In this document: piece by piece, positions 4,016 through 28,199 of the stretch
Layout: every line of letters starts with the position of its first letter
Position numbering within the stretch: the stretch's first letter is position 1
Virus genome (UHGV): UHGV-0070243
Source: a virus
Length of the DNA: 41,024 bases
Strand: one strand, 5' to 3'
Translations under genes and position numbers: made by a program
The notes under the pieces: generated by a model
What the model was told of the DNA's origin: nothing
The model's input: the letters and a program-made list of their open reading frames with translations, nothing else
Database searches by the model: none

Positions 4016-4042
4016 CCCGCAAAATATTGCGGGCTTTTTTTT
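4016..4042. terminator. hairpin CCCGCAA-aata-TTGCGGG followed by T8 on the plus strand; abuts the tail spike stop codon
   Basis: 7-bp stem, 4-nt loop; T-run only on plus strand and A-run before it, so strand of action is ambiguous. Confidence 0.4.
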
Positions 4043-11308: not shown

Positions 11309-11428
11309 TTCATATCTCCTTAGCCCCACCGTGGGGCAAAACAATTGTCACACCGTGCGTCATTGATGTCAAGCACACGGTGAGGCATACTTCAATCATT
11401 GCAAGTAACTCAATATTTGGTGAAGAAC

Positions 11429-11860
11429 ATGAGCAGAGAAGATCCACAACTAAGGATCAGACTTCCCGTTGAAGTAAAAGAAAAAATAGAAATTTCTGCA
11501 AAAGCCAATAAGCGATCAATGAACGCTGAAATAGTACAACGTCTTGACACCAGCTTTCTGAAAGATATTCATGAAGATGACGTAATTTCTGCTTATGAAG
11601 CAAAAATTATTGCAAACAATGCACGGCATGAAATATCAAATATTATTTTCAAAAGAACCTTTAATGAAATTAATAAGAAAATAACACTTGGACATACAAG
11701 TTTTTATATAAACCTTAATGACCTTGAACTGGAATCACTTGCAGATAATGATTACCAGATCATCTTTGAAAAAACATTTAATAAGCTCAATGAACTAGGT
11801 TACATCATCTGTGAAAACTCATGGGATGCAGATGGTTTTGGAATTGAAATACCTGAATAG
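11429..11860 (+). CDS. mnt: Mnt-like ribbon-helix-helix repressor with about 60-aa C-terminal extension (143 aa)
   Basis: MSREDPQLRIRLPVEVKEKIEISAKANKRSMNAEIVQRL resembles P22 Mnt N-terminus (DDPHFNFRMPMEV...ANGRSMNSELLQIV); divergent from arc; AT-rich. Confidence 0.65.
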   Translation: MSREDPQLRIRLPVEVKEKIEISAKANKRSMNAEIVQRLDTSFLKDIHEDDVISAYEAKIIANNARHEISNIIFKRTFNEINKKITLGHTSFYINLNDLELESLADNDYQIIFEKTFNKLNELGYIICENSWDADGFGIEIPE

Positions 11861-11950
11861 GAAGAACAAAAGGCGTGTACATATTACACGTCTTTAATAC
11901 AATTGAAAAACGCCACATTACTGATGTATGTTACAACAAGGAGCGATATT

Positions 11951-12514
11951 TTGAAAACCATATCTATATTAAAGGTTGCATTAGGCGTCGCTATTATTTT
12001 GACTCTCTCAATATTGTTTTATTTTTACCACAAAAAAACAGCTATTGCTCTTGATGGTCACGCGGCAAACTCATTTTTCTCAGAGTACATAGTGCCGCTA
12101 TCAGGAAGCGGTATAACAAATAAATATACTGACTATGACATCAAATATGGAATTGATGATGGGGAGACTATTGTATTACATGTAATCATTAAAAACCTAA
12201 TGACAGTAAATAAAAATACAGACTTCAACGATAAAAATACAATACATCACAACAACAGCAAAACATTAATTTCTTATAGTAGCAACATCTATACGGATAA
12301 ATACCTAAAATACATCTCAGAAGATACAATAAAAGCAACCAGCGAAAAGTTAAAAAACATATATTGTGCATCCGGCAGTTTTCACAAATTATCGCCGCAA
12401 GAGCGTTTATTCTACGAAGCAAGAAAACAACGTAAGTCAATAATATTACATTATTATGCTGATTCAGGGGAGTCACTCATATTTAATATTGGGGTTTCCC
12501 CTGAATCATGCTAA
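11951..12514 (+). CDS. hypothetical membrane-anchored protein (about 188 aa) in the position P22 sieA occupies; candidate superinfection-exclusion/abortive-infection protein
   Basis: TTG start with perfect SD AAGGAG 7 nt upstream (alternative ATG 11924 lacks an RBS); one TM helix ISILKVALGVAIILTLSILFYFY; very AT-rich; sits between mnt and the core-protein operon. Confidence 0.5.
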   Translation: MKTISILKVALGVAIILTLSILFYFYHKKTAIALDGHAANSFFSEYIVPLSGSGITNKYTDYDIKYGIDDGETIVLHVIIKNLMTVNKNTDFNDKNTIHHNNSKTLISYSSNIYTDKYLKYISEDTIKATSEKLKNIYCASGSFHKLSPQERLFYEARKQRKSIILHYYADSGESLIFNIGVSPESC

Positions 12515-12525
12515 AGGCGTTTAAC

Positions 12526-15500
12526 TCACCGCATCACCGGATCCACCTGGTTTATTAGTGGCGCAATCCAGAACAGGTTATTGCCTGGTATCAGGGTTCG
12601 GACATTATGCACAATACGATCACCGGCATCACCATTCAACACTCCTGCGGTCACATCAATGATGCTATCCGCAAGACCAAATGACGGTCCGAATAGAGAT
12701 CCTACGAATCCACGACTGGCATACCTAGACTGTGTGCCAGTGCCAAATAAAGCCCCCAGCCCAACAGCACCACCAGTAGCCTTTTCAGCCATGTTGTTAT
12801 ATTCCATCAATGGCCCAAGAATACCGGATCTATCTATACCCTCAAGCACCAGCTTCTCTGGTGACCAGTCAACATTTTTCCCTTTCGATGCTTCTTTAAG
12901 CGCATAGACCAGTGAGCCAAGAGCAATCTGAAATGCAGTGCCATAATAAAATTGCGCAGTTCCTTCCTGTAGCCCACCAAGTAGCGCACGGTTGTATGAA
13001 GCCGTTGTGAATGATTTAAACTGAAATATCGTTCGCCCCATTGGAGTACTCGCCCATAAAGGTGTGTCACCAATACCGGGGGTGATGATAGTGTTATTAA
13101 CGTCTTTCAGAACCGCTGACTGGAATACTCCGGCAACGTACTGATCGTCCCATTTATCAAAGTTACCAATGTGCCATCCATCAATTACCTCACCATGTTT
13201 CTCGAACTCACTGCGAATACGCGCAGCCATATTGTCGTTGATACCGAGTTTTGCCATGCGACGTGCAGAAAACGCACCAGACAAAATACCGTCTGACGTG
13301 AGCATTCCGTTCATGGATTTGTTTATGTCATTAAATCGATCCATGAGTGTCAGCTTGCCGAAGGCATCAGTAATTCGCTCCATTCCTGCTTCGACTGCTG
13401 TTGTCCTGGAAGAACTGTCAACAAGATCACCAATTGCACGAGAACGTGAATGTAGTACAGTTTCCAATCCAATCCCCATCTTCAACATCTCTTCTTTGCT
13501 GGCCTTAAATGCCGGTGATTGGGATATCTGAGAAGCATAGCCTTTCATGGTGTTACGGAAACCATTAACCATAACCCCTCTGGCCAGATCTGGAATAGCT
13601 GATACTGTCATTCCACCGAGTTTGGTCGTGAAGTTCACATCCCGCAGAAAAGCGCCAGCACGAACAAAAAACGAAGACGGGTCATCAGGCATACCATATG
13701 TACCAACAAGACGATCGCGTAATGCTGTTATGTCTCTGAGATCATTTGCTCTTGATTTTGAAAGTCTGGACTGTTCTTTCCGTAATTCCTTTTCGTACTT
13801 TCGCATTAATGAATCGAGTTTACCCTGAGGAACAACTTCACCATTGCTCTCATAACGTGCTTTCAGATTTGCCACACTTTCGTCATATTTCGCCTTTATT
13901 TTTTCAGGCACTTCCCGTAACAGACTGTCATATTCGTCTTCAATTAATTGCAGACGCTCAGCCATAGTTCGTTTGCCAAATGTTCTCGTCAACTCAATTT
14001 CTGCTGCCGCTTCACGGATATGACGTTGCAGCACGTAATTCACATCACTTTCGAGATAATCCCTGATAAGACTATCAGGCACATTTAATGTTCTTTCTTT
14101 CGTACTACCTGCGGCTTTTACAGAAAATACGCTGACAAAATCCTGTGGAACCTTAGCACCAGTAATTTTATTAATTACGATATCCGCTGCAATTTCAGCA
14201 TCCTCAGGATCCAGTGTTTTATTGCCTCTCGACCACCAGTCAACCAAAATACGTCGAAATTTATCGCGTTCACTGATTATTTTTCCAACTTTATATATAC
14301 GTGGGAAATAGCTTGCCTGACCTAATGCTTTCAGTTCTTCATCTGGCGGCAATAAACCAAGCTTTTGCATTTCAACTTTCACCCGATTTAATACAGTTCG
14401 CATCGCCTGCGCCGTTTCCTGAACAACAGGATTAGCATGAACATCACCGCTTCGCATCGCATTCCCAACCTGCTGACGAAATGAATCAAAACTCATGTCA
14501 CCACCATCAGCTTTATACTTTGCGTATGCCTGTTTATTTCCGACAACAACTGCAGCTTCTTCACGCTGCCATCCACGTGTACGGGTTTCTACAGCTATCG
14601 GTGTTTCAATCCCCCTTTCATTTCCTTTAAGGGTGAAATTATTTTCGGCTAACTCCAGCGTTGTTTTTCGCACTGTCTTTGACGGAGACTCCATTAACCT
14701 TGTCAAAGGAGTAAGATAGCTCCCTGCTTTCCATGCAGCCTTTCCAACCACCCCACCAGAAACAGGGGTTAAATCATCCAGAGTCGCTGTATCAATTTTC
14801 ATAGCACCAACACTACCACCATCGGAAAGCGAAGCGGCAGCCCTGTCAGTCGCTGATGTAATGCTCATATTATCAAGAGCATCAGCAACCTCACGTGTGG
14901 CTGCAGCCCGGACGGATGGCGAAAGCGCAACACCAGCACTGGCAAACACGCCGCTCATCATCGCACCCGCTGCAACGTGAGCGGCACTTTCACCCCATGA
15001 GCGTGTTATTTGCTGATTATTCAGTACAACCTCGCTTAATGCAGTACCGGCAGCACCAATCGCAATCTGTGAGCCAATACGCGCCAGTGCCCCTCCTTGA
15101 GCACCGGGGATAAACATTGACGCAACAGTAACCGGATCCATTCCCGCAGCAATACTGGCAAGGGTTCCAACTACGCCAGCATCAGACAATAAACGTCTGT
15201 CTTCATTTTCATCATCTATCTGCTGCTTAATCCACGCCGTTTCCTCTGGCGATCGGGAATCTGCAAATTTCGCCCCCCAGTATTCATAACCGTGCAACTC
15301 ATTTTTATCAGCATATGGGTTATAACCTTCGACCGGTTCAAACTGTCTGGCTGGGCGGAAAAAACCAGCCAGAATATTGTTCTGTCGCATTGCAGCCCCC
15401 CATACGGAAGGCTCAGGTGGCAATGGCTCAGGATTAGCCCCTTCCGGAAGGGCAACATCAAACCCAGTTTGTTCCGGCAAAACATTACCTGACGGGATCA

Positions 15501-15540
15501 GTCCGTTATTAAGATCTTCAGCTTGTGCATAAACTGGCAT
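12526..15540 (-). CDS. internal virion/ejection protein (1004 aa), T7 gp16-like by position and size
   Basis: last large gene of core operon before the immI block; Gly/Ala-rich stretches; start overlaps upstream stop. Confidence 0.6.
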   Translation of the reverse strand: MPVYAQAEDLNNGLIPSGNVLPEQTGFDVALPEGANPEPLPPEPSVWGAAMRQNNILAGFFRPARQFEPVEGYNPYADKNELHGYEYWGAKFADSRSPEETAWIKQQIDDENEDRRLLSDAGVVGTLASIAAGMDPVTVASMFIPGAQGGALARIGSQIAIGAAGTALSEVVLNNQQITRSWGESAAHVAAGAMMSGVFASAGVALSPSVRAAATREVADALDNMSITSATDRAAASLSDGGSVGAMKIDTATLDDLTPVSGGVVGKAAWKAGSYLTPLTRLMESPSKTVRKTTLELAENNFTLKGNERGIETPIAVETRTRGWQREEAAVVVGNKQAYAKYKADGGDMSFDSFRQQVGNAMRSGDVHANPVVQETAQAMRTVLNRVKVEMQKLGLLPPDEELKALGQASYFPRIYKVGKIISERDKFRRILVDWWSRGNKTLDPEDAEIAADIVINKITGAKVPQDFVSVFSVKAAGSTKERTLNVPDSLIRDYLESDVNYVLQRHIREAAAEIELTRTFGKRTMAERLQLIEDEYDSLLREVPEKIKAKYDESVANLKARYESNGEVVPQGKLDSLMRKYEKELRKEQSRLSKSRANDLRDITALRDRLVGTYGMPDDPSSFFVRAGAFLRDVNFTTKLGGMTVSAIPDLARGVMVNGFRNTMKGYASQISQSPAFKASKEEMLKMGIGLETVLHSRSRAIGDLVDSSSRTTAVEAGMERITDAFGKLTLMDRFNDINKSMNGMLTSDGILSGAFSARRMAKLGINDNMAARIRSEFEKHGEVIDGWHIGNFDKWDDQYVAGVFQSAVLKDVNNTIITPGIGDTPLWASTPMGRTIFQFKSFTTASYNRALLGGLQEGTAQFYYGTAFQIALGSLVYALKEASKGKNVDWSPEKLVLEGIDRSGILGPLMEYNNMAEKATGGAVGLGALFGTGTQSRYASRGFVGSLFGPSFGLADSIIDVTAGVLNGDAGDRIVHNVRTLIPGNNLFWIAPLINQVDPVMR

Positions 15541-18257
15541 TATTTAGATCCCCACGAAAAGTAATCTTTAAATTTGTCCATACGTTCGTTATGCAGGCGC
15601 TGATACTGCTCATCCAGAGCGCGATGCTTGTCTTTGAAGTTTCGTATAGCCTGTCCACGCATAATTTCTTCCTGCTCGTACTGCTCCCGTTCCTGCTGCA
15701 TTTTCTTATAAGGTTCCCAATCTGCTAGTGATGGTTCCCAACGCATAGGACGCCCATGTTTGTTATAAAACGGCTGGACCCGATCGATGCCATTTTCATC
15801 CTTAGTTCTTACCATAATGGCGTAATCACCATTACGGGGTGTTAACACGTCAGGGGTTATGAATAATTCTCCATTAATACGACTCTCAGGGGTTTTTGTC
15901 TCAACTACAGGAGCATTACCTGACGTGATCCCAAGCAACGTCGGACTGGTTGTTATAATCTCTTTGCGCTCACCGTACATCAGCCGTTCTTTTTCAGCTT
16001 TCCACTGCGCCGCCTGCCAGCCTGACGGCCCATATTGATAAAGCGCCTCCGGTGCATATTTCATAAACTGTGCATCTCCGTTAACCTCGCTGATACTCCA
16101 GGTGCGGGCTATCTGCTGGTTGGTCATTTGCTTCGCTACGTCAGCGTTACCACCAGCAACGCGGTAGTTAATGTCATACAGCGTCTGATAGTCATTACGG
16201 AATCTAGCTGCTTCCGGCGTCTGGTCATCCGCAGAAGGATCCCAACGGAACCACTGCGCCATATTGCTGACAGCAGAATTCATCGCCTTGCTGCGATCAT
16301 TTTTGTACTCTTTTGAACTCTGCGTTGATGCCAATTGAGCTTTAAGAGCATCGGTCTGGTTGTATGTCAGGTTCTGCGCCTGCTCGATAGCCGCATCAGC
16401 AGACATGCCAGAATCAGTTAGTTGCTTAACAGTCAGATAAAAACCCTGCATATCCTTCGGCATATTTCCAATAGATGCATTGTCTGTTTCATATAACCGA
16501 CTAAACAGCTCCGCTGCATTTTTAACCACTTCCTGATTACTGGATCGGGATACTGCTGAAAGCTGCGTGATGACCTGCGAAGGCATTATGCCAGTCTGAG
16601 CCACAAGCCGAACAACCCCATCATGAGTGGAGGCATCATTAATACGAAAGTTCTGCGCCATTTCTGTGTAATCAGCAGCTTTCTGCATTGACTTGTTGCT
16701 TGGGTCTAATTTTTCACCTATTGTCAGCGCCTCATTGAATCTGCGTGAATCCCGTTGCGCCTGAATTGCTTCATTTGATCTCTGAAGCAATGCAGACAAT
16801 TTTCCGTAAGCATCGAGTTTTAACGCATAGTGAGGATCGTTAACCTCAGGCTTCACTTTCTGCATTTCTTCTTGCTGCTGAGAAGGAGGCAAATACTGAA
16901 TTGCCTGGAATATTCTCGCGTTATCAATCGCTATATCCAGTTGATTGATTATTTTATCTGCGTTTTTTCCATACCCCCTGATGATGGTCTCCTGAGCCGG
17001 TATATAATCTGGAACCTCACCGTTATATAGCTGGGCCATGGTGTTATTAATAGCTGGCTCAAGCTGTTCTAATATTAACTTCCTTTGCTTTTCTATCTGA
17101 CTATTAGCAAGGTTATCTATTTGATAAATAGTCAGCGGATCCATTCCAGTTTTATTTTTTCTATATCGGGAAAGCCACCCTTGTGTTTCTGATGGAAGAT
17201 TTCGGATAAATTCTTCTTCTGATATTTCACCTTTACGTGGATCACCGACTTTGGCGATCAGTTTATCCACGTTACCCATCCCCCAGTTATATGCTGCTCC
17301 GGTCAATATTTCTGAGCCGTACTTACCATACAGTTGATTTACATAGTCACTGGCAAGCATTTCATGCTGTTGTTCGTCCGTAGGGTTGTATTCAACGCCA
17401 CGCTTGGCCGCCAGTTCTTTCCCTGTGCCCGGCATTAACTGGTATTTCCCCTGGGCCCTCTCTCCAGAAGATGTTTTCGGTCCTTCAAGAATACTACCAT
17501 CAGGATTAAAATGACGATCACCTGATTCAACAAGGCGTATGGCACGCATGTCCATGCCTACAGAATCATTTTTCTGAAACAGACCATTTAGCCATCCTTC
17601 CGGATTAGCAGCGGCATAATTCTTCGCCCGCATTTCTGTGGCACTGCGATCATCACTTTCTATTTCTTCCAGAATGCGTTCTTGTGACCATCCCCTGGCA
17701 GCTCCATATCTGGCAATGGCTACCATTCTGGAATTTCTGGCTAAAGTGGCAGTTTGCGGGTCATTCCAGGCATCCGCTTCATTTTGTATCCATAATTTTC
17801 TCGTTGCCTGATATTGCTCATCTTCATAGGCATTTGTCTGCCCTATCTCATGTCTGAGAACTCCAGTACTGAACTGAATTTTCTGTGTTCTGGCTTGTTG
17901 CAAAAACATATTTCTTGCTGCTTCATCAGTCAATGAAGCAGCTATTTCTTCCACATCCTGATCAAATCCAGATATGTACTCTTGCCCCTTACCAATCGCA
18001 TTTTTGCCTTGTTGTGCATAAAAACCGGTTTGAGGGTTATAAAGACGTTCATTGCTGCGCTGATTAAGCTGAAGGATGGCATCCTGAGACAATGCAACAT
18101 TCGCTTTCTGCCTGGCTTCACCATATGCCACCGCATACTGATCTGCGACATTCGCCAGCACCTGACCTGCTTGAGGAACATCGAAGGTCTGAAAACCACC
18201 GGTTTGCACACCACGACTTTGCACCTGGCGTCCGGATGTAGTAGGAACAACAGGCAT
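15540..18257 (-). CDS. internal virion protein with lytic transglycosylase (SLT) domain (905 aa)
   Basis: SLT-like motifs ESGDRHFNPDGS...GKYQLMPGTG...AYNWGMGNV; gp15-like position. Confidence 0.7.
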   Translation of the reverse strand: MPVVPTTSGRQVQSRGVQTGGFQTFDVPQAGQVLANVADQYAVAYGEARQKANVALSQDAILQLNQRSNERLYNPQTGFYAQQGKNAIGKGQEYISGFDQDVEEIAASLTDEAARNMFLQQARTQKIQFSTGVLRHEIGQTNAYEDEQYQATRKLWIQNEADAWNDPQTATLARNSRMVAIARYGAARGWSQERILEEIESDDRSATEMRAKNYAAANPEGWLNGLFQKNDSVGMDMRAIRLVESGDRHFNPDGSILEGPKTSSGERAQGKYQLMPGTGKELAAKRGVEYNPTDEQQHEMLASDYVNQLYGKYGSEILTGAAYNWGMGNVDKLIAKVGDPRKGEISEEEFIRNLPSETQGWLSRYRKNKTGMDPLTIYQIDNLANSQIEKQRKLILEQLEPAINNTMAQLYNGEVPDYIPAQETIIRGYGKNADKIINQLDIAIDNARIFQAIQYLPPSQQQEEMQKVKPEVNDPHYALKLDAYGKLSALLQRSNEAIQAQRDSRRFNEALTIGEKLDPSNKSMQKAADYTEMAQNFRINDASTHDGVVRLVAQTGIMPSQVITQLSAVSRSSNQEVVKNAAELFSRLYETDNASIGNMPKDMQGFYLTVKQLTDSGMSADAAIEQAQNLTYNQTDALKAQLASTQSSKEYKNDRSKAMNSAVSNMAQWFRWDPSADDQTPEAARFRNDYQTLYDINYRVAGGNADVAKQMTNQQIARTWSISEVNGDAQFMKYAPEALYQYGPSGWQAAQWKAEKERLMYGERKEIITTSPTLLGITSGNAPVVETKTPESRINGELFITPDVLTPRNGDYAIMVRTKDENGIDRVQPFYNKHGRPMRWEPSLADWEPYKKMQQEREQYEQEEIMRGQAIRNFKDKHRALDEQYQRLHNERMDKFKDYFSWGSK

Positions 18258-18832
18258 CAGTAACCTCCTATTTTGAATCGGGAGTCAGAATTCATAAAAC
18301 CTGAGTTAGATAACATTGGCGTTCCACCACCAGATGCACTTCCTTTAGAGAACGGACTCCACGTCCCACCAAACATCTGGTACGCACCGTATGCCTTCAG
18401 AGGCGCAGTGAGCAATGTTGTTGCTGCTCCCATATTCCCCTGTTTACGGGCTGAACTGGCTTCTGCTTTATAGTTGGCAGCCTGAACCTGATAACCGTAA
18501 GCCTCGCGTTGCGCGTTATTCACCGTCGTCAGCGAATCAAGAGCGCCAAACTGGGCAGTGTCGCCAAATATATCCAGCGCGTTACCTGTAGATAAATCAG
18601 CGCCGGTAGCCCCCATTGTCGCCGCCTGTGTACCAAGCCGCTGTCGGGTCTCTCTGCGCCGTTGCTCAGCTTCAGCGTTACCTCTGTTTATTGCATCATT
18701 TGCCTGAGCTGTGGCTATATCTGCGTTCGCTTCTGCAACCTTCGAGGCATACTTTCCCTGTTGGTACTGGGTGTATGCCTGAATGCCACTCATGGCGAGC
18801 ATTGCGCCACCAGCAATAACCGGATCGCACAT
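18257..18832 (-). CDS. internal virion protein (191 aa), gp14-like by position
   Basis: Ala/Gly/Gln-rich low-complexity protein in the core-protein operon; translationally coupled. Confidence 0.45.
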   Translation of the reverse strand: MCDPVIAGGAMLAMSGIQAYTQYQQGKYASKVAEANADIATAQANDAINRGNAEAEQRRRETRQRLGTQAATMGATGADLSTGNALDIFGDTAQFGALDSLTTVNNAQREAYGYQVQAANYKAEASSARKQGNMGAATTLLTAPLKAYGAYQMFGGTWSPFSKGSASGGGTPMLSNSGFMNSDSRFKIGGY

Positions 18833-19296
18833 TATTTTCTCTCCATGTGAAATCTGTGGAAATTAAGACCAAGAGCACCATAAGGCGCGGCTTCTTCAAG
18901 CCTGAATCCAAGCCAGTGCAGCCATGCTTTGGCAACATGGTTTCGCTCGTCGACATAGTTTTCCAGGCGCGGATAAACTGCCAGCATCTGCTGCAATACA
19001 GGGCGGCAGTGGCGAAGAAATGTCTTCTGATATTTTTCGATACGGCTGGTTCCGACCAGCCAGGGCGTACCATTGCCACCGATCATTGACGCCGGAGATA
19101 CGCCAAACATGGTTACCAGTTCTCCGTTCGCAAATCCTGACCAGGCCATAGTCGCAGTGCGAAGACCAACGCGCAGCGCATCTTCGGTAGTCATCAGCGA
19201 TACCGCATACAGTTCGTCAATATCAGCCTGACGAACATCCGGCAAAATCATCTGAAGATGCTCTTCGGTAGCGGGAATAATTTGAACATCGATCAT
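18832..19296 (-). CDS. virion protein (154 aa), gp13-like by position
   Basis: position between tubular-B-like and core proteins; start overlaps upstream stop (ATGA). Confidence 0.4.
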   Translation of the reverse strand: MIDVQIIPATEEHLQMILPDVRQADIDELYAVSLMTTEDALRVGLRTATMAWSGFANGELVTMFGVSPASMIGGNGTPWLVGTSRIEKYQKTFLRHCRPVLQQMLAVYPRLENYVDERNHVAKAWLHWLGFRLEEAAPYGALGLNFHRFHMERK

Positions 19297-21767
19297 CAGA
19301 ATCCCCCAACAGTAAGGCGAGGAATAACGGCAAGAACAGACAGCGGCAACGGGTCAAGCTGACGGATTTTTACACGCCCGTTTTTGCCCCAGTTACTGTC
19401 CAGTTTCACTTCTACTTTTCCGGTAGCATCATCAACAGGATCATCGTAGAACTCGAATTCACGCTGTGGATATTCGTACCATTTACCGCCGGGCGTAGTC
19501 GCCCAGATGCCGCGACTGGCATTCACAACCAGAGTAACGGAGGGGATCACCTGTTTTTTGTCCAGCAGCGTTTCCTGTCCGTTAATGTTGATATCCAGTG
19601 TTTCGAATTCAGCAGTTATTGGCAGGCCGATGTGCACTACAGCCCCCGGAGATTCCAGCGTGACGGCACCTCCGGAAACCACTTTCTGTGGTTCCACGTT
19701 CGCATCAGAGAGAATGTTTACGGTCTGGCCTTCAAGATGAGACAGGCCTCCAAATGTCCGGCGCGCCATCTGCCAGTTCGTGGTGGCCACATTCCTGAGG
19801 GATGGCGGGACGTTCCTGTTAGCACGAACCACTACAGCGGTATTGCTGGTTACAGAAATAATGTCGCAACGTAATTCTTTTGACACTTCATCGCCAGTAT
19901 CAGGAGCAGTTCCGGTATAAGGGAACTGTAGTTGCGCACCGACATCACTACTGGTGAAGTACGCACCACCAGAAACACTGATTGTATATTCCGCGCGGTA
20001 ATCCCATTCGCCAGAACCACCAGTGATGGTCATCGTTCTGTCAGACGTATTTCTTCCATCATAGCTAAGGCCAGAATCAACAAAGAAAGCATCTTCATCG
20101 CTGGTAAATAAACGGCTGGACAGTCTCTCGATGTATCTCACTGTTTGCCCGTTAACGGTTCTGTTAACGACGAAATACACCGCATCTTCATTGCCTTCGC
20201 TGATACTGCATGTGCTTTCATATTTTCCGGTACTGGATTGTGGTGCCCATGCAAAAACCTGCTGATCACGCAAATAGGTCATCACCAGTAATTTACCGTC
20301 ATCACGAATGCAGAAGGCACTGGAGTAAGGGACAATCGAGAAGCACCAGTCAACAATGCTGTGCTTCTGAAAAAGATGATTGGCAAGGATAGTAAGGTCG
20401 TTCCCCTGATAGCCGTCAACATCGAATGAGTAGGCCAGATCACGGACAACACTGCCTTTCTCCTGGACGAACAGAGCAATATTCGCCACGGCAATTGGTG
20501 GGACATTGCTCGAGCCATTTGATCCCTGAGAGCTGAATGCAAATGATGATGGGGTTAACACTTTGTTCTGGTCGCCGGTGATGACGTACTCACCTCCGGA
20601 AGTCAGCGCCACCAGAGAACCAACATCAATCAGGTGGCGGATCTCATTAACCTGACGCCCGGCATAGGTGTAGATAATTCTGTCGTCATCCTGCGTAGGA
20701 TTGCTTTTGCCAAAATCCTTATAATCCCCGGTACGGCTGGCCCAGATAGTCTGAGGGAACGCAGTCGATGCGGCGAAGTAAAGACGCTGTTGATAATAAA
20801 CAACAGTGCCAGGATAACCATTAACACTGTTCCAGGCATATTTAGCCCATTTATAGCTGGCATTATCCTCGCCAACGACCTGCGAAGGGATATAGGAAAT
20901 CACCTCAGCAGTTGCAGTAGTGCCATTTACAGCAGTTATACTGGCAATGCCAAAACCACTGTGCAGATACTCCCACTCAATGCCAGTATCATCATCACCG
21001 GATCCGCCCCAGCCATCCCATGATGTGCCTTCTGTATGCGAAGGGCGCAAAGTACCTGTTTTGCCTGCTGTAACGGCGCGATAGTAGTTACTGTCTGCAC
21101 GGCGAATATCGCCAATCGACGTACTCTTACTGGTTTCCCATACCGGCACAGAATCCACTGCAGGCTGTTCCAGATAGAACAATTTGCCTACCTGCTCCGC
21201 GCCAAAAATAGAGGCGCTTGCCGTTAACGTAATTGTCCCGGTGCTGGCGCTGGCATAAACCGTCACTGACTCGTCAATATTGATATCTTCAAATGGCCCG
21301 TTCTTCGTTACCACATCAACCAGTTGCCAGTTGTCATGCGCATAGCGACGCAACTCTTTCGGCGGGTATGCCGGATGAACCAGCGTAAGCACGTCGGCGC
21401 TTTGCGTGAATTTAATTCGGAACAGATCGGCTTCAGTATATGGCGTGGCAATTTCATAAATAACATTGCTGCTGTTCAGCACCAACGCACCATCTTTGAT
21501 AACGCGCATGTACTGGTGTCCGAACTCCAGAGCATAGGTCTGAACCGTCGAGAACTGGAACGGGATCAGGCGGCATTTCCGATTTGGGTATTTGGCGGCA
21601 CCGACAAAACGCGTACCAGGTCGATTCTCAACGCCGCCATACTGCCGCACGATAAAGTTATCGCACTTGCGCAATGCCACCTGGTACTTCGCCATGTCAA
21701 TACGCCCGTACAACGACGGTCCAATCTCACCACCGGCAAAGCTGGGCTGGATCCAACTGATAGCCAT
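19296..21767 (-). CDS. tail tubular protein B / nozzle-like (823 aa)
   Basis: size and position match T7 gp12; N-terminal ISWIQPSFAGGEIGPSLYGRID resembles the gp12 N-terminal pattern (memory). Confidence 0.6.
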   Translation of the reverse strand: MAISWIQPSFAGGEIGPSLYGRIDMAKYQVALRKCDNFIVRQYGGVENRPGTRFVGAAKYPNRKCRLIPFQFSTVQTYALEFGHQYMRVIKDGALVLNSSNVIYEIATPYTEADLFRIKFTQSADVLTLVHPAYPPKELRRYAHDNWQLVDVVTKNGPFEDINIDESVTVYASASTGTITLTASASIFGAEQVGKLFYLEQPAVDSVPVWETSKSTSIGDIRRADSNYYRAVTAGKTGTLRPSHTEGTSWDGWGGSGDDDTGIEWEYLHSGFGIASITAVNGTTATAEVISYIPSQVVGEDNASYKWAKYAWNSVNGYPGTVVYYQQRLYFAASTAFPQTIWASRTGDYKDFGKSNPTQDDDRIIYTYAGRQVNEIRHLIDVGSLVALTSGGEYVITGDQNKVLTPSSFAFSSQGSNGSSNVPPIAVANIALFVQEKGSVVRDLAYSFDVDGYQGNDLTILANHLFQKHSIVDWCFSIVPYSSAFCIRDDGKLLVMTYLRDQQVFAWAPQSSTGKYESTCSISEGNEDAVYFVVNRTVNGQTVRYIERLSSRLFTSDEDAFFVDSGLSYDGRNTSDRTMTITGGSGEWDYRAEYTISVSGGAYFTSSDVGAQLQFPYTGTAPDTGDEVSKELRCDIISVTSNTAVVVRANRNVPPSLRNVATTNWQMARRTFGGLSHLEGQTVNILSDANVEPQKVVSGGAVTLESPGAVVHIGLPITAEFETLDININGQETLLDKKQVIPSVTLVVNASRGIWATTPGGKWYEYPQREFEFYDDPVDDATGKVEVKLDSNWGKNGRVKIRQLDPLPLSVLAVIPRLTVGGF

Positions 21768-22375
21768 CAGGACAACCTCGCAATGGTAAACTCATCAACC
21801 GGTGGCTGTGGTTCCTGTGATTCATTCTGGCTATGCGAGCCAGCACTAAGAATCACGCGATTGTACATATTGAGGGCAAACGTACCGAGGTCTGCATTCC
21901 CAGTCAGCGCCATGTTAATAGCTGCCGCAAGACGCCAGGCCAACGCCTCCATAAAAATGGCATCAAACATGTTCACATCTGAAACGCGAGAGACATACTT
22001 GAGCCATGCCTGCGGCTGGTCTGTGTAGATCAACTTTCCTGTTCCGTTGGTGTCTGCACCAACTTCGTACTGAACGCGCATTGCTGCTGTTGGATTGCGT
22101 ACACCAGGAAGCATAATTTCAGTAATGCGCAGACAATCGGACGGGTACTGGTACGCATATTCCCAGTCAGGCGGTGGATTGTTCGTATCTGCAAGCGCCA
22201 CGCGTTTGGTAGCAAAGTTCCAGTCAAAATCAGAAAGCACAGCATCACGGCAGGCCTCAAAGTGCAGCGAACATTCCCCTGCTTCCTTGCTGGCTTCCGT
22301 CAGGCTGTTAATGCTGCGGCTGTTGCCAATATTGGACAGCGCACGATTACAGATCTCTACTACAGAGGCCATCAC
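21767..22375 (-). CDS. tail tubular protein A / adaptor-like (202 aa)
   Basis: size and position match T7 gp11; coupled to the downstream gene. Confidence 0.5.
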   Translation of the reverse strand: MMASVVEICNRALSNIGNSRSINSLTEASKEAGECSLHFEACRDAVLSDFDWNFATKRVALADTNNPPPDWEYAYQYPSDCLRITEIMLPGVRNPTAAMRVQYEVGADTNGTGKLIYTDQPQAWLKYVSRVSDVNMFDAIFMEALAWRLAAAINMALTGNADLGTFALNMYNRVILSAGSHSQNESQEPQPPVDEFTIARLS

Positions 22376-22701
22376 TCACCCCCGTTACCGTAGAGGGTTT
22401 CAGCCGCTGATTTTTCTACATCACCGGAAACAGGAGCGATCGCCATATCAGTGATCTGCAGATCGGCGCTGCGATTAACACCATCGTCAGTTTCTCTGGC
22501 AGACAGGCCTCGAATAACAGCTTTTGCAGTTATCATCACTTCTGTTCCGACGCCCTGAGGTTGCGCCTTCAGCTTATTCAATGTGTCGTTATTAAGAGTG
22601 ATGCACAGCCCCCACGGGTATTCATCGCGAGTTCTGGTTTCTCCGCTCTCATCCTGGTAGCTGTCAGTGCCGGTTTTGAGGTTTACGAGTTCCATATACA
22701 C
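22372..22701 (-). CDS. hypothetical virion-module protein (109 aa)
   Basis: ORF in structural operon; RBS AGGAG upstream. Confidence 0.45.
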   Translation of the reverse strand: MYMELVNLKTGTDSYQDESGETRTRDEYPWGLCITLNNDTLNKLKAQPQGVGTEVMITAKAVIRGLSARETDDGVNRSADLQITDMAIAPVSGDVEKSAAETLYGNGGE

Positions 22702-22745
22702 TCCTGCAATAAAGGGGCCGAAGCCCCTTGTCGGATTCGCGAGGC

Positions 22746-23090
22746 TTACACGCCTAGTTCTTTACGCTTATCTGCGATCTTCTCGCGGAGCGTTTCGGCT
22801 TTAGCGTTATGGTGTGGCTTCTCGTTAAAGAGCAATTCGTACTCTTCACGGAGCTTATCCAGTTCACCATCATCTGACACATCGTTGATGATTTTGGTGC
22901 TGGTTGCTGCCATTGACACCTTTCCTGCAACTTTTGCTTTTGCCTGTCTGGCTGCATCGTTAACAGGTTCCAGTGCGCTACCAGGCTCACCTTCGTATTC
23001 GATTTCTGCCCCCTCCGGCCACAGAGTGTTATGGATATGAGAGAGGCGCAGAACGAGGTATCTTGGTTTCTCACCTGACATCGATATCAC
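22746..23090 (-). CDS. hypothetical virion-module protein (114 aa)
   Basis: ORF in structural operon; acidic. Confidence 0.45.
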   Translation of the reverse strand: MISMSGEKPRYLVLRLSHIHNTLWPEGAEIEYEGEPGSALEPVNDAARQAKAKVAGKVSMAATSTKIINDVSDDGELDKLREEYELLFNEKPHHNAKAETLREKIADKRKELGV

Positions 23091-23091
23091 C

Positions 23092-23529
23092 TTAACCAGT
23101 TACTTTTGAGCGGATCGGATACGGCGTATTGGCATCAACATCAAGACTGATACCAGCAGTGAATTCGCCAGCCGTTAGTGGGCCAGTTGCGACGGAGTAG
23201 TTAACACGCAGATATCGCTGAACACCGGCAGGCACCTTTGCAGAAACAACTCGTTTACCTGCTGTCAGGGCGGTCTTTGCCAGTGCGCCACTATCATAAA
23301 TAGTGGTCCATGAGCTGTTATTTTCACTCGTCTGCAACTGGATGTTTACAGTTGCATCACCGCTTGCCGCGGCGGCTGTGTTAACCAGCGCCCAAAACTC
23401 AAGCGGGTAACCAACGCCGATATCACGACGTTTTCCGTCAATTGGACCGAGATCGATTACGTCAGTAGAAGCCGCGGTATCAGTTACCGCCTGTGCTTCG
23501 GAGAACATCAACAGTTTGTCGGTGATCAT
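23092..23529 (-). CDS. hypothetical virion protein (145 aa), possibly capsid-associated
   Basis: immediately downstream of the capsid gene; beta-rich composition. Confidence 0.45.
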   Translation of the reverse strand: MITDKLLMFSEAQAVTDTAASTDVIDLGPIDGKRRDIGVGYPLEFWALVNTAAAASGDATVNIQLQTSENNSSWTTIYDSGALAKTALTAGKRVVSAKVPAGVQRYLRVNYSVATGPLTAGEFTAGISLDVDANTPYPIRSKVTG

Positions 23530-23580
23530 CTTCTTTCTCCATTAGTGGGTCTGTTACGACCCACAGGTTAATAACAGGCG

Positions 23581-24573
23581 TTACACCACGCGGGCTTCTG
23601 TTTCCAGAAGCGCATCAGTTTCACGGATTGGTACACCACGGAATGAAGTCCACCACTCGCCTTCTGTCTCTTTTACGCTGATAGCCAGAGATGTTTTCTC
23701 CAGAGACTGCAGATCAAGAGCCTGGCCTACAGTGCGGTTCATGTAGAACACCGGGCGGCCCATGCCACGGTTTGGAATGCGATGTAGTGCTTTAACCATC
23801 AACTTCGCAATATTTGCGGCAGAGGATGGTTCTGAAAGATTGCTGACATCGATGTTTGCAATGCGAACAACATAACGCCAGTCACGCAGAGCAAGTCCGT
23901 TATCCCATTTGTAATGGGTGCGATAGCCTTCGTACTTGCCGCCATTAGCATCTTCCAGTGTCACCTGGCCTTTATCTTCCATCTGGATGCCAGCCTTCTG
24001 CCCTTTCGGGAAGATGCCATGCACGGTGTTTTCGCCCCACACCACTAACCAGATTGAGGTGTTATCTGTACCCGTGCCACCAGCATCAATGATGTTCTGA
24101 GCATTACCCGCAGACAGGCTGGAATAGCGGGAGGACAGTCCCATAAACTGCTGAGGGTTAACGCTGGAATCACCATAAAACAGCGTCTGCGCCATCTGCT
24201 GATTCATCGCTTCAATAAATGCGCGGTCTTCAGAAAGGCGGAATTCGGCGGTATTGCCGTTCAGATCAGCCAGTGACTTATCGACTTCCGCATAGGTTTC
24301 CAGCATGCCAACGGAATCGGTTACCTGCACTGTGGTTGATTTGCTTGGCTGTACGCCATAGTTCAGCAAACGCCAGGTAGCTGAAGGTAAACCAGAACGA
24401 ATGGTGGTTCGGTGTCCGGTAGGAAGGTTCCCTTCGACAAAAGGCATATCCTGAAGGATCGGGTTAGTTTGACCGAGAAGCTCGATAATCTTATCGACTT
24501 TCCCGTTTGGATCGACGCGCTTACCCCAGTCAGCCAGCGTTAGCGCAGTTAAGCCTTTAACAGCCATTGTCAT
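23581..24573 (-). CDS. major capsid protein (330 aa)
   Basis: position after scaffold gene, size typical of T7-like major capsid; followed by a stem-loop at 23545-23564. Confidence 0.7.
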   Translation of the reverse strand: MTMAVKGLTALTLADWGKRVDPNGKVDKIIELLGQTNPILQDMPFVEGNLPTGHRTTIRSGLPSATWRLLNYGVQPSKSTTVQVTDSVGMLETYAEVDKSLADLNGNTAEFRLSEDRAFIEAMNQQMAQTLFYGDSSVNPQQFMGLSSRYSSLSAGNAQNIIDAGGTGTDNTSIWLVVWGENTVHGIFPKGQKAGIQMEDKGQVTLEDANGGKYEGYRTHYKWDNGLALRDWRYVVRIANIDVSNLSEPSSAANIAKLMVKALHRIPNRGMGRPVFYMNRTVGQALDLQSLEKTSLAISVKETEGEWWTSFRGVPIRETDALLETEARVV

Positions 24574-24581
24574 TTCCTCTC

Positions 24582-25283
24582 TTATTTGCCATAGAGCACT
24601 TCGGCCGCACTACGCTGGCCTTCATTACCACCGGTGACCATGCCATCTTCAGACATCGCCTTTCCGATTTTCACGAACGTTTTGACCAGATCAGGGTGAT
24701 TACCCAGCCCGGTGGTGTTCAGATATTCTTTGAGTTCAGGTGTCCCGAACTGGTCAAGCGCACGCTGTGCGGCGCTAAGGTTAGAAATCAACTTGTCGCC
24801 ACCGATTTCTTTGTCGGCTTTTACATCCGCAGCCCACTGCTCGGTTGTTTTCTGCCAGGCTTCTGCCTGGCGCTGCTGAACACCTGCCAGAATCTTCGGA
24901 TAAGCATCAACCAGCTTTTGCGCTTGCTCGTTGGTCAGGTTTAGTTCTCGCGCCACCGGCTCGAATTCCTTCAACGCTTCTGTATCCAGCTCTACGCCTT
25001 CGGCAGCCTGAAACTCGTACTTTTCTGGCGCACCCTCTGGTTTATCGCCGTCCTTTTTTTCATCCTGCTTATCGTTTTCAGGCTTTTTGTCATCAGCAGG
25101 TTTATCGCCATCAGCAACAGGTTGTGGCTTATCACCTTCCTGTTGTGATGGATCACCAACTGGAGCAGGGTTATCACCTGCAGGCGCTGACGGTTCTGAC
25201 GCAGCCGGAGCTGCTCCACCATCGACTGGTTGCTCATTGCAAAGACGGCGATACAGCAAACGCTCAAATAAATTCATGATCAC
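24582..25283 (-). CDS. scaffolding protein (233 aa)
   Basis: highly acidic, Pro/Asp/Lys-rich low-complexity N-terminal half, helical C-terminus; between portal and capsid. Confidence 0.65.
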   Translation of the reverse strand: MIMNLFERLLYRRLCNEQPVDGGAAPAASEPSAPAGDNPAPVGDPSQQEGDKPQPVADGDKPADDKKPENDKQDEKKDGDKPEGAPEKYEFQAAEGVELDTEALKEFEPVARELNLTNEQAQKLVDAYPKILAGVQQRQAEAWQKTTEQWAADVKADKEIGGDKLISNLSAAQRALDQFGTPELKEYLNTTGLGNHPDLVKTFVKIGKAMSEDGMVTGGNEGQRSAAEVLYGK

Positions 25284-25576
25284 TCCTGTTCACTGGCCTC
25301 TTTGGCCATCTTCAAATACTGTTCAGGGCAATGCGCCATAACGCGCTGAAACAGTTCCAGCGCCAGATTGCGTTGCCCCTCATTAAATGCCATTGCCATA
25401 GCGTCCATCGGTGAGATAGCGGAAAACACACGGCCTTTCTCCAGCACCGACCAGACAACGCGACGCCCCTGTTCACTGCTCATGACAAAGCAAATGTCAT
25501 CAATTTCACGCTGTGCCATGTCACGTTGCTTACGGGCGTTTTCTTCTTTCAGTTGATCGTCTTCGTAATCTGTCAT
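25280..25576 (-). CDS. hypothetical head-module protein (98 aa)
   Basis: ORF between portal and scaffold; overlaps both by 4 nt. Confidence 0.45.
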   Translation of the reverse strand: MTDYEDDQLKEENARKQRDMAQREIDDICFVMSSEQGRRVVWSVLEKGRVFSAISPMDAMAMAFNEGQRNLALELFQRVMAHCPEQYLKMAKEASEQE

Positions 25577-27252
25577 TGTGATTGCCCACCCTGACCACTA
25601 ACTGCATTCGCCATAGCTGACAAAACACTCGGATCCGAAGTTTTAGCTTCGCTTAGCGTCTTGGCACCCTGTGCCGCCGCCATCCCCATCGCCATCATTT
25701 GTTGCTGCTGTTGTTGCTGTGCCCGTTGCTGGCGAGCCTGCTCAACCTGTTCCTGCGGAACAATGACGGTTGGAGACACTCCGGACATATCAGCGAATGC
25801 ATCGATCGCCTGATCAACGTTGAGTTTGTCGAGAGCTTCTGGTTTCGCTTGCGCAAGTTGACCAATGAAGTTGACCGTAGACGCCAGACTGGACAGGCCG
25901 ATAGACTTCTGCGCCTGAGCCATGACGGAAATGTATTCGACCTTCAGGGGCATACCTTCCATCGCGTCAGGCGGTGGCGGCAGCATGTTTTTACGCACCA
26001 TCATCGAGAAAGCGCGATCAATGAGAGGATTAAGACATTCGTCGTTCAGACGCTCCAGAACCGGCCCCAACATCAGAAGTTTTTCTTCTTTCATTTCGAT
26101 CACCGCTTCAACAGGCATCGAGCGGGTATTGATGTTCTGCAACATCATGAACAGATCGACAAAGTAGGCGCTGTTAATGATTTGACGGGTGTCCTGAATG
26201 TCTGCCACCAAATCTGCTGTACTGGGGTTAACCAGATAAGCAGGCCTGAAACCATCCTGACCAGTAATCTGATCGATATACGTGATGTCGCCAGGAAGAA
26301 GGGAGGCACGCTGATTCTTGAGGGAAGTCGGAGCAACCATCGGCGGATTGGTGGCTTTATCAATCAACTGCGACTTGCGCTTCTGGAGAAGCTGCAATGC
26401 CTTAACAGGTCCAAGCGCCAGCATACCCGGGCATGATGATCCATAAACATCTTCGCCGTTAACTTCCCAGCGCGGAGCCATAATTGGAAACTCATCGAAT
26501 CCGGACTCACGCAACAACTTGTCGTTATCGCCACCAACCTCGTAATAAACCGATTTGAATGGCTTGTTCTTGCTATCCAGCTTCGATGTATCGCGGTCAA
26601 TGTTCGGGTAAACCGAATGCATCACTTCAATCCACTTCTCGTAGGTTCCGCTTTCCCACATGCTTTTTACGGATTCGCTGACGTTATTTAGCCCGAACTC
26701 CTGAACAAGCTGACGAACAGTCATAGAGAACTTGCGAAAACAGGTGTCCACACTGCCACGAGGTGAGTTAGCCAGGTAGTAACTGCCTATCGGGAATGGC
26801 ATTGTGCGAATGATGTCCTCGTCATCCTCCAGCACTGCCATTGCACCAGTGCTGTATGTGCCGAGGCTTCCGTATAACTGCGGCAGCGACTGATAGAGAT
26901 TCGAATTATTGAACATATCGTTCATGCGGTTCTGCACCGCCTCAAGCCACAACTTAACAGGGCCATAATCCATCATTTCAGGATCTGGCGTAGCCAGGCG
27001 AAACCACGGACGCGCGGGGCTTGTGATGCCTGACATCATGCCGCTGGCGAGAGTGCGCGCCGCCATAGTCCCGGTCGAATCAATAATACGTGTATTGCGT
27101 CGATCGTTACGGTTGACCTCAGAAGTCAGAAAGCGGGAACCACGCGGGTTGATGTAATCACTCAACTCGCGCCAGTGCGGCTCGAACGACTGACGCTCGC
27201 TTTCAAGTTGTGCGAACTGTTTGTTCAATCGCTCTTTAGTTGTTTCCGCCAT
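25573..27252 (-). CDS. portal protein (559 aa), T7-like head-to-tail connector
   Basis: size; Gln/Ala/Met-rich C-terminal tail (QQRAQQQQQQQMMAMGMAAAQ) resembles the T7 gp8 C-terminus (memory); GGAG RBS. Confidence 0.75.
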   Translation of the reverse strand: MAETTKERLNKQFAQLESERQSFEPHWRELSDYINPRGSRFLTSEVNRNDRRNTRIIDSTGTMAARTLASGMMSGITSPARPWFRLATPDPEMMDYGPVKLWLEAVQNRMNDMFNNSNLYQSLPQLYGSLGTYSTGAMAVLEDDEDIIRTMPFPIGSYYLANSPRGSVDTCFRKFSMTVRQLVQEFGLNNVSESVKSMWESGTYEKWIEVMHSVYPNIDRDTSKLDSKNKPFKSVYYEVGGDNDKLLRESGFDEFPIMAPRWEVNGEDVYGSSCPGMLALGPVKALQLLQKRKSQLIDKATNPPMVAPTSLKNQRASLLPGDITYIDQITGQDGFRPAYLVNPSTADLVADIQDTRQIINSAYFVDLFMMLQNINTRSMPVEAVIEMKEEKLLMLGPVLERLNDECLNPLIDRAFSMMVRKNMLPPPPDAMEGMPLKVEYISVMAQAQKSIGLSSLASTVNFIGQLAQAKPEALDKLNVDQAIDAFADMSGVSPTVIVPQEQVEQARQQRAQQQQQQQMMAMGMAAAQGAKTLSEAKTSDPSVLSAMANAVSGQGGQSQ

Positions 27253-27900: not shown

Positions 27901-27977
27901 GTGGCATTAGCTCAGTTGGACAGAGCAACCGCCTTCTAAGCGGTTGGTCGCAGGTTCGAATACTGCATGCCACGCCA
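27901..27977 (+). tRNA. tRNA-Arg (anticodon UCU), 77 nt, with a G:A mismatch in the T-stem
   Basis: acceptor GTGGCAT/ATGCCAC, discriminator G, CCA encoded; D-arm GCTC/GAGC; anticodon stem ACCGC/GCGGT with loop CTTCTAA; T-arm GCAGG-TTCGAAT-ACTGC; overall very similar to E. coli argU (memory). Confidence 0.8.
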
Positions 27978-28062: not shown

Positions 28063-28140
28063 ACAGCAGGACGCCATTGCGATGACTTCATGCTGTAAAC
28101 CAGTACAGCCACGGAAGGCATAACTCATTGCTTCCAGTTC

Positions 28141-28164
28141 GCCCGGTTCGTCCGGGCATTTTTT
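28141..28164 (+). terminator. rho-independent terminator GCCCGG-ttcgt-CCGGGC + T6
   Basis: 6-bp GC stem followed by ATTTTTT. Confidence 0.65.
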
Positions 28165-28180
28165 GCCTGATGACCACAAA

Positions 28181-28195
28181 TTACCTTAAAGGTAT
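28181..28195. promoter_or_regulatory. operator-like site TTACCttaaaGGTAt overlapping a TATAAT hexamer (28193-28198)
   Basis: one mismatch in right arm; directly upstream of the moron start codon. Confidence 0.5.
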
Positions 28196-28199
28196 AATC

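Follow-up and report, generated by a model that had tools for sequence, protein, structure and literature searches.

Epsilon15 and phiV10 are classified as Uetakevirus, and the same genus name has been given to TL-2011b (PMC11522302), a temperate podovirus from enterohaemorrhagic Escherichia coli O103:H25 (NC_019445 / JQ011317), and to vB_EcoP_ZX5 (hereafter ZX5), a temperate phage isolated on an O87:H52:K1 host (PMC9782041). An N-terminal tailspike anchor is common to all Uetakeviruses (PMC11522302). Hardies et al. (2016) defined a “transient tail homology group” that includes the T7, P22, N4, epsilon15, phiRIO-1 and F116 groups, and mapped counterparts of tubular tail proteins A and B and of internal virion proteins (IVP) A, B, C and D in the epsilon15 group, in syntenic order (PMC4819975). 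Epsilon15 gp17 was identified as IVP-D and gp15 and gp16 as candidates for IVP-C; none of the methods used could confirm that the epsilon15 family has an IVP-C homologue, and these two proteins were assigned by position. The terminase and capsid proteins of epsilon15 cluster with siphovirus ones and are not of the T7 type (PMC4819975).

Here we analyse the interval 12526-27252 of UHGV virus genome UHGV-0070243, a 41,024-nt stretch of viral DNA that we refer to as the window. A six-frame list of open reading frames (ORFs) shows the interval to be an unbroken run of genes on the minus strand. An initial annotation, made from the sequence alone, had described a T7-like order of virion genes, from portal to tail fibre, inside a temperate lambdoid-type prophage. 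All nine ORFs that it named between portal and gp16-like gene are present on the minus strand, with sizes exactly as given. It omitted four small genes of 98, 145, 114 and 109 amino acids (aa), the first lying between the portal gene and the gene for a 233-aa protein, and the others between the capsid and adaptor genes. We conclude, with little room for doubt, that the interval is the virion-assembly and DNA-ejection block of a temperate E. coli podovirus of the epsilon15/phiV10/TL-2011b type (Uetakevirus type). With the terminase genes, which lie upstream, and the tailspike gene further downstream, it makes up the late morphogenesis region, of which the small terminase gene is the first (Table 1).

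Relationship to the epsilon15 lineage

TL-2011b aligns to 12526-27252 with 98.4% nucleotide identity, covering 99% of the length. The portion from the portal gene to the gp14-like gene (18351-27252) is ~98.5% identical to phiV10, ZX5, PAS61, HEMP4 and other phages, and has 82% identity with Enterobacter phage Tyrion and ~76% with epsilon15. The PHROG names of the block's proteins agree with the RefSeq annotations of epsilon15 and phiV10. The features that mark an epsilon15-type virion are found here almost in full: a gp7-family capsid protein, a gp10-like staple protein, a Bbp16-like cement protein, syntenic genes for portal, adaptor, nozzle, IVP-A and IVP-B, and a Uetakevirus tailspike anchor. 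The exception is the three-gene ejection set of epsilon15 (gp15, gp16 and gp17), a feature of the type species and no formal criterion, in place of which the window has two genes, as does TL-2011b. The head-tail block (portal to gp14, at least 80% coverage) is integrated in 504 of 5426 complete E. coli genomes (~9%), and the chromosome of FDAARGOS_1302 holds the same type of prophage.

Table 1 Genes and other features of the late morphogenesis region and its surroundings in the window.
Feature	Coordinates	Strand	Evidence
Small terminase subunit, 224 aa	30518-31192	-	PF03592 Terminase_2, E 1.4e-29; phrog_51; outside interval
Large terminase subunit, 489 aa	29052-30521	-	phrog_2, E 4.7e-52
Portal, 559 aa	25573-27252	-	PF12236 Head-tail_con, E 3.8e-187
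Bbp19-like protein, 98 aa	25280-25576	-	PF25181 Phage_Bbp19, E 6.8e-17; phrog_528; epsilon15 gp5 position
Scaffold-position protein, 233 aa	24582-25283	-	phrog_458 “protease”
Major capsid protein, 330 aa	23581-24573	-	PF20911 GP7, E 2.1e-149; epsilon15 gp7 family
Bbp16-family capsid cement protein, 145 aa	23092-23529	-	PF21190 Bbp16, E 1.2e-46
114-aa protein, function unknown	22746-23090	-	phrog_590, E 4.2e-60; epsilon15 gp9 position
Epsilon15 gp10-like capsid staple/decoration protein, 109 aa	22372-22701	-	PF21628 Gp10-like, E 1.2e-51
Tail adaptor, gp11-like, 202 aa	21767-22375	-	predicted fold of T7 gp11
Tail nozzle, gp12-like, 823 aa	19296-21767	-	PDB 8ck1_A; phrog_376 tail protein
Internal virion protein A, gp13-like, 154 aa	18832-19296	-	phrog_308, E 9.2e-63
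Internal virion protein B, gp14-like, 191 aa	18257-18832	-	PF24072 T7_gp14, E 7.1e-8
gp15-position ejection/core protein, 905 aa	15540-18257	-	PF01464 SLT, E 1.2e-7
gp16-family ejection protein, 1004 aa	12526-15540	-	phrog_342, E 1.4e-209
Tailspike, 1039 aa	4041-7160	-	PF12217, PF12219, PF12195, PF12218, PF13884
Ant antirepressor	10124-11068	-	PF10547 P22_AR_N, E 3.7e-44
Arc-family DNA-binding protein, divergent from Ant	11399-11860	+	PF03869 Arc, E 1.2e-14
Bro-N protein	7774-8613
Repressor, 194 aa	36736-37320		HTH domains only
tRNA-Arg (anticodon TCT)	27901-27977	+
306-aa ORF, function unknown	28128-29048	+	phrog_4780
172-aa ORF	654-1172	+	phrog_1277 “DNA methyltransferase”
288-aa ORF, function unknown	8930-9796	+	phrog_3630
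203-aa ORF, function unknown	11903-12514	+	phrog_8033

Head proteins

T7 gp8 to gp17 were scanned against PHROGs and compared with the proteins of the window. The portal has phrog_332 as its best PHROG and also matches T7's phrog_449, while T7 gp8 matches phrog_332 in return. A sequence search found the PDB portal 8ck0 (E 2.9e-178), which is of the same deposition series as 8CK1, an entry identified as phage Carin-1 from its Foldseek description. These reciprocal profile matches assign the portal to the T7 gp8 family. Upstream, the large terminase gene occupies a position homologous to TL-2011b gp22 and epsilon15 gp2.

The capsid protein, listed in the initial annotation as part of the T7 series, proved to be of another kind. 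It matches the NCBIfam equivalog NF045672 (MCP_gp7_epsi_15) with E 9e-124 and 412.9 bits (cut-off 75), and its PHROG is phrog_212, that of T7 gp10 being phrog_267, with no cross-hits. It is a member of the epsilon15 gp7 family, accompanied by Bbp16-like and gp10-like accessory proteins in an arrangement of the epsilon15/BPP-1 type that has no T7 counterpart. PGAP names the homologue of the 145-aa protein “Bbp16 family capsid cement protein” and that of the 109-aa protein “gp10: capsid staple protein”; the 114-aa protein has no Pfam match.

The 233-aa protein is called a protease or peptidase by PHROGs, RefSeq and PGAP. No match was found for it in Pfam, in NCBIfam or, by sequence, in the PDB. 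Residues ~20-85 form a low-complexity stretch of variable length, rich in Pro, Ala, Glu, Asp and Lys. The AlphaFold model, built on a shallow alignment because all homologues in it were at least 80% identical, has a mean predicted local distance difference test score (pLDDT) of 54: residues 1-82 are of low confidence save for a short helix at 5-14, and residues 101-211 are all helical. Foldseek searches with this model gave only noise, with no protease-like fold. The capsid protein is without a long N-terminal delta domain, the Pfam GP7 profile beginning at residue 21 of 330, and therefore a separate scaffold is needed. On the model and the composition of the protein, a scaffold seems considerably likelier than a protease, and the name “protease” is probably a misnomer inherited from earlier annotation. 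The initial label of scaffold is favoured to that extent; homology to T7 gp9 is not detectable, since T7 gp9 matches phrog_1052 and the 233-aa protein phrog_458, with no cross-hits.

Tail adaptor, nozzle and tailspike

The adaptor was modelled with AlphaFold from a 36-sequence alignment (pLDDT 87), and the model was compared with the PDB by Foldseek. It matched the Carin-1 connector 8ck1_E with E 6e-16, a template modelling (TM) score of 0.83 and 33% identity (E 2.8e-26 by sequence), and LME-1 9efk with E 1.1e-9 and 19% identity. T7-like adaptors rank after these two and include T7 gp11 (7box_M/N; E 6e-6, probability 1.00, TM score 0.57-0.60) and KP32 tail tubular protein A. Direct comparison with T7 gp11 was not significant by BLASTP and gave no match by hhalign with the 36-sequence profile, so the kinship is seen only through structure prediction and Foldseek. 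The 202-aa protein is, on its predicted structure, an adaptor that folds like T7 gp11 (tail tubular protein A).

The 823-aa protein matches PDB 8ck1_A, described as “Tail Nozzle”, with E 5.7e-217; BLASTP against T7 gp12 was not significant. A strong match between hidden Markov models (HMMs) of the epsilon15 gp12 group and the T7 gp12 group has been reported (PMC4819975). Through this report and the named PDB relative, the nozzle corresponds to T7 gp12 (tail tubular protein B).

The fibre with a gp17-like N-terminus, which had been listed after the gp16-like gene, lies outside the interval and is a tailspike; 5.4 kb holding the Arc/Ant block part its gene from that of the 1004-aa protein. Residues 1-166 share phrog_1640, 8460, 2710, 27277 and 15695 with residues 1-200 of T7 gp17, and PF03906 is below threshold (E 0.0091). 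The shared profiles indicate a distant relationship between the anchor and the N-terminus of T7 gp17. Over its whole length the tailspike has 99.8% identity with the ZX5 protein, and it is 62% identical to the K1F endosialidase; residues 193-1039 match the endosialidase of CUS-3, a P22-like phage, at 95.5% identity. Its predicted architecture is a Uetakevirus-type N-terminal anchor, a K1-capsule endosialidase and a C-terminal intramolecular chaperone domain (PF13884). The high identity to CUS-3 from residue 193 onwards implies that the receptor-binding part has been transferred between podovirus lineages that are unrelated; a K1 E. coli is the probable host. No O-acetyltransferase or other serotype-conversion gene was found in the stretch that separates the tailspike gene from the lysis cassette (3734-4041).

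Ejection proteins and a two-gene cassette

The best PHROG of T7 gp13 is phrog_308 (E 1.1e-42), the same as that of the 154-aa protein, in which PF11090 (Phage_T7_Gp13) falls below threshold (E 0.088). The match of the 191-aa protein to PF24072 is above the gathering score, and PGAP names a homologue “virion core protein, T7 gp14 family”.

The SLT domain that the initial annotation saw in the gp15-position protein was borne out by PF01464, at residues 260-342 of the 905-aa protein. Just upstream of the match are an ES motif, RLVESGDRHFNP, and then QLMPGTG, as expected for a family-1 lytic transglycosylase, in which E244 would be the catalytic residue. Residues 1-250 are 43-44% identical to epsilon15 gp15 and phiV10 gp18; the remainder is unrelated. 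A transglycosylase at this position is not peculiar to the window, since HHpred notes in the epsilon15 RefSeq record liken gp15 to soluble lytic transglycosylase (and gp11 to T7 tail tubular protein A).

The 1004-aa protein aligns to positions 203-1225 of the 1235 in the phrog_342 profile, and T7 gp16 to positions 4-1227. The transglycosylase of T7 gp16 comprises residues 1-156 (PMC8954989). The profile alignment clearly identifies the 1004-aa protein as a member of the T7 gp16 family that is without the N-terminal transglycosylase part. BLASTP against T7 gp16 gave two weak colinear segments. The nearest relatives outside TL-2011b are in a Klebsiella prophage (40%) and in 32-kb Vibrio phages (~33%), and tblastn reaches, weakly, the gp16-position proteins of T7-like phages, among them RSB1, which has been placed in the T7 subgroup (PMC4819975), mellemsur and pelagiphages. 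The 1004-aa protein has hardly any similarity to epsilon15 gp17. When the 905- and 1004-aa proteins were searched by sequence against the PDB, only bacterial SLT enzymes were returned, by way of the SLT domain, and the structures of T7 gp15 and gp16 were not found.

Epsilon15 and phiV10 have three genes after gp14, encoding proteins of 842, 634 and 918 aa and of 837, 600 and 824 aa, respectively, whereas in the window and in TL-2011b two genes, for the 905- and 1004-aa proteins, occupy this place. A mosaic junction lies at ~18350: within the final ~31 codons of the gp14-like gene (alignment column ~551), the window departs from both phiV10 and TL-2011b. In a three-way DNA alignment, TL-2011b keeps to the phiV10 sequence beyond the stop of gp14 and into the first codons of the following gene, so that the window and TL-2011b have different junctions. 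The gp14-like protein, at 191 aa, exceeds those of phiV10 and TL-2011b by 10 residues, and the DNA match of ZX5 to the window likewise ends at the gp14-like gene.

Of the 5426 complete genomes of E. coli, only 45 carry the two-gene cassette (at least 80% coverage); AR_0085 and turkey isolate 3908 have it at 100% identity. We regard the cassette swap as ordinary phage mosaicism that may be useful for ejectosome studies. The cassette, of a 905-aa protein with an internal transglycosylase and a 1004-aa protein without one, stands in place of the three-gene set within a head-tail block that is otherwise 98% identical. A stronger claim, that the swap reveals an exchangeable ejectosome unit, is possible and rather doubtful. 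If the cassette is undescribed, it would amount to a natural swap experiment in which the ejectosome parts that span the periplasm and inner membrane are exchangeable as one unit, and would mark which gp14 interface must travel with them.

A working model of the virion block

The homologies and gene order observed here allow a provisional scheme, in which stoichiometries and the ejection pathway are inferred from work on T7, epsilon15 and Carin-1. The terminase would pack DNA through a dodecameric portal of the T7 gp8 type, into a capsid of epsilon15 gp7-type (HK97-fold) subunits assembled on the 233-aa scaffold-like protein and reinforced by the gp10-like staple and Bbp16-like cement proteins. 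The short tail would consist of an adaptor of the gp11 type and a nozzle of the gp12 type, and on it six trimeric tailspikes could dock by their gp17-related N-terminal anchor and cut the K1 polysialic acid capsule. The head would also contain four internal proteins, the gp13-like, gp14-like, 905-aa and 1004-aa proteins, to be expelled when a cell is infected. Once outside, the gp14-like protein may form the outer-membrane pore, the 905-aa protein may cut peptidoglycan and span the periplasm, and the gp16-like protein may reach the inner membrane.

Alternative readings

Several points weigh against the assignment to a Uetakevirus-type podovirus, or against parts of it. The genus criterion of the International Committee on Taxonomy of Viruses is an intergenomic nucleotide similarity of at least 70%. 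The product of coverage and identity, a rough estimate given an incomplete genome, is ~77% for TL-2011b, ~59% for ZX5 and ~45% for phiV10; as the value is that high for TL-2011b yet only ~45% for phiV10, formal membership of the genus is tentative. The gp15-like status of the 905-aa protein comes from position, size and N-terminal similarity to epsilon15 gp15, and no sequence method ties it to T7 gp15, with which it has no PHROG in common. The scaffold role of the 233-aa protein is based on composition and on predicted helices in a low-confidence model, with no fold match. The element is known here from its sequence. Finally, the integrase gene and attachment sites are absent from the window, so that an integrated or intact state is not demonstrable from it.

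This last point, together with the insertion sequences found in some related E. coli prophages (23CRST038, OkiPb01680), is what a decayed prophage remnant with structural genes no longer in use would also present. The integrase is missing because the window ends ~150 bp short of the position of the integrase gene in TL-2011b. Moreover, the structural ORFs are all intact, tightly packed and often overlapping start to stop; they are 98-100% identical to genes of plaque-forming or spontaneously induced phages (ZX5, PMC9782041; PAS61, PMC11522302), and the ejection cassette is preserved without change in the two other genomes named above. We therefore consider decay very unlikely.

A virion module of the P22-like (Lederbergvirus) type would account for the resemblance of the immI block, tailspike position and endosialidase to those of the K1 phage CUS-3: the Arc/Ant block is flanked by the ejection genes on one side and the tailspike gene on the other, as in an immI arrangement, the receptor-binding part of the tailspike is nearly that of CUS-3, and the ant region matches CUS-3 DNA. 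The virion proteins themselves contradict it. The portal belongs with PF12236, the T7 gp8 type, and the capsid with epsilon15 gp7; the adaptor has the predicted T7 gp11 fold, and its best P22 fold match, 8u10_m of the portal-tail complex, has E 0.73. No P22 family appeared among the Pfam and PHROG matches of the virion proteins scanned. What the window has in common with CUS-3 is confined to two pieces, the receptor-binding portion of the spike and the ant region, which points to horizontal exchange of those modules, and a P22-like virion is highly improbable. P22-like or siphovirus profile matches for the structural proteins were the outcome that the initial annotation had named as grounds for abandoning its own reading; no such match was found, and that attempt at refutation failed.

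Extent of the T7 resemblance

The nine T7 positions gp8 to gp16 have counterparts in the same order in the interval, with a gp17-type tailspike further on. Seven of the ten positions are homologous to T7 by profile, fold or published HMM: portal, gp11, gp12, gp13, gp14, gp16 and the gp17 N-terminus. The T7 pattern proposed initially is sound in gene order and in these seven positions; it fails for the capsid, and kinship is not detectable for the scaffold and gp15 positions. At the level of PHROG families, the gp9, gp10, gp11, gp12 and gp15 positions are unshared with T7. Measured against the Autographiviridae, the window has the T7-type portal, gp13, gp14 and gp16 families and the gp11 fold, and is without an RNA polymerase, T7-type replication and lytic lifestyle, and the gp9 and gp10 families. 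Membership of the T7 group is not upheld: the block belongs to the epsilon15/phiV10/TL-2011b lineage and its kinship to T7 is remote.

A recent chimera, in which a lambdoid prophage captured a virion module from a lytic phage of the T7 group (Autographiviridae), was suggested by the title of the initial annotation and could draw on the gene order and on the Pfam and PHROG families held in common for portal, gp13, gp14, gp16 and the gp17 N-terminus, but it deserves almost no credence: BLASTP is not significant for gp11 and gp12 and marginal for gp16, five positions fall in other PHROGs than T7, the additional genes for Bbp19-, Bbp16- and gp10-like proteins are characteristic of epsilon15 and BPP-1, and the near-identity of the whole block (98%) to established temperate phages of the epsilon15 lineage, with the very deep split between epsilon15 and T7 in published trees (PMC4819975), effectively refutes it. 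What the block has in common with T7 goes back to an ancient shared ancestry of the tail and ejection modules of podoviruses, and not to a recent T7-lambdoid hybrid.

Temperate backbone and neighbouring genes

The surroundings of the block are those of a temperate phage, as had been proposed: a helix-turn-helix (HTH) repressor, a lambda-P-type replication protein, RecT and an Arc/Ant pair are present, relatives of the element are integrated in bacterial chromosomes, and there is no RNA polymerase. The six ORFs of at least 400 aa (the tailspike, the 1004-, 905- and 823-aa proteins, the portal and the large terminase) are all assigned, none as a polymerase. Two details were revised. In place of exo/bet recombination genes there are a PD-(D/E)XK RecE-like nuclease and RecT, and of the proposed O/P replication pair P is a true lambda-P homologue while the “O” position holds a protein with HTH_36 and DnaT domains. 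Lysis genes for a holin, a GH19 endolysin and a spanin, and an MT-A70 methyltransferase gene, are also found in the window.

The P22 immI-like block is confirmed by P22_AR_N in Ant and PF03869 in the divergent Arc-family protein. The TL-2011b record gives the name “Arc-like repressor” to a small ORF that lies upstream of ant, a label that Pfam did not confirm in the window. The repressor has HTH domains only, with no S24 peptidase (autocleavage) domain detected, and the window encodes two antirepressor-type proteins, a Bro-N protein and the P22_AR_N Ant (Table 1). This combination suggests that induction may work through antirepressor and not through cleavage of the repressor. Also inside the immI-like region are the 288- and 203-aa ORFs, which gave no Pfam or PADLOC match.

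Between the large terminase and portal genes lies a gap of lower GC content with a tRNA-Arg gene followed by the 306-aa ORF, on the strand opposite the virion genes. It is a moron-like island, the content of which differs in TL-2011b and FDAARGOS_1302. The 306-aa ORF has weak coiled-coil-type matches to LmuB and DruC; in a PADLOC defence scan of eight accessory ORFs, such weak matches of this ORF and the expected methyltransferase were all that appeared.

The 172-aa ORF is labelled “DNA methyltransferase” in PHROGs and in the TL-2011b RefSeq record. It carries a lipoprotein signal, MKFKKCLLPVAMLASFTLAGC, and a glycine-zipper (Rick_17kDa_Anti / TraT-like) domain, and is a lipoprotein, probably a surface or exclusion moron, for which the database label looks wrong.

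Implications

The correspondences between T7 and the epsilon15 group are already published (PMC4819975) and the block itself is already known. It is a textbook virion block of the epsilon15 type, found in roughly one of every eleven complete E. coli genomes, and carries little weight as a discovery. Its value lies in annotation: the window can be labelled with confidence as a Uetakevirus-type, K1-capsule-specific temperate podovirus, and the name “peptidase/protease” for the 233-aa protein is unsupported. Alternative ejection cassettes in near-identical head-tail blocks could, in addition, serve studies of podovirus ejectosome assembly.

Comparison with known phages

T7 gp8 to gp17 are of 536, 307, 345, 196, 794, 138, 196, 747, 1318 and 553 aa, and their counterparts in the window, in the same order, of 559, 233, 330, 202, 823, 154, 191, 905, 1004 and 1039 aa. 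Sequence identity is at noise level for most of these pairs. The terminase genes are at the right end of T7, whereas in the window they precede the portal gene; the lytic transglycosylase is at the N-terminus of gp16 in T7 and in the gp15-position protein in the window. The window further differs from T7 in its capsid family, the four extra small genes and a tailspike gene set apart by the immunity block, and in being temperate, without an RNA polymerase or T7-type replication genes.

The closest solved structures are those of the Carin-1 phage (PDB 8CK0/8CK1) and of Legionella phage LME-1 (9EFK), whose hosts differ. PhiV10, ZX5 and epsilon15 have the same gene order as the window from portal to gp14; phiV10 and epsilon15 lack an Arc/Ant pair at the place where the window has one. 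TL-2011b, phiV10 and Tyrion each carry an O-acetyltransferase or serotype-conversion gene at a place where the window has none.

TL-2011b has a predicted O103-specific spike followed by the O-acetyltransferase gene, in contrast to the endosialidase of the window, and of the window's two flanking thirds only 60% and 77% can be aligned with it. It has in common with the window a genome plan with an Arc/Ant block, lysis genes, RecE/RecT, DnaT/P and repressor, as well as the 905-aa SLT protein and the 1004-aa gp16-family protein, the latter with 99.4% amino-acid identity. The only mildly distinctive feature of the block is a minority two-gene ejection cassette that is also present in TL-2011b.

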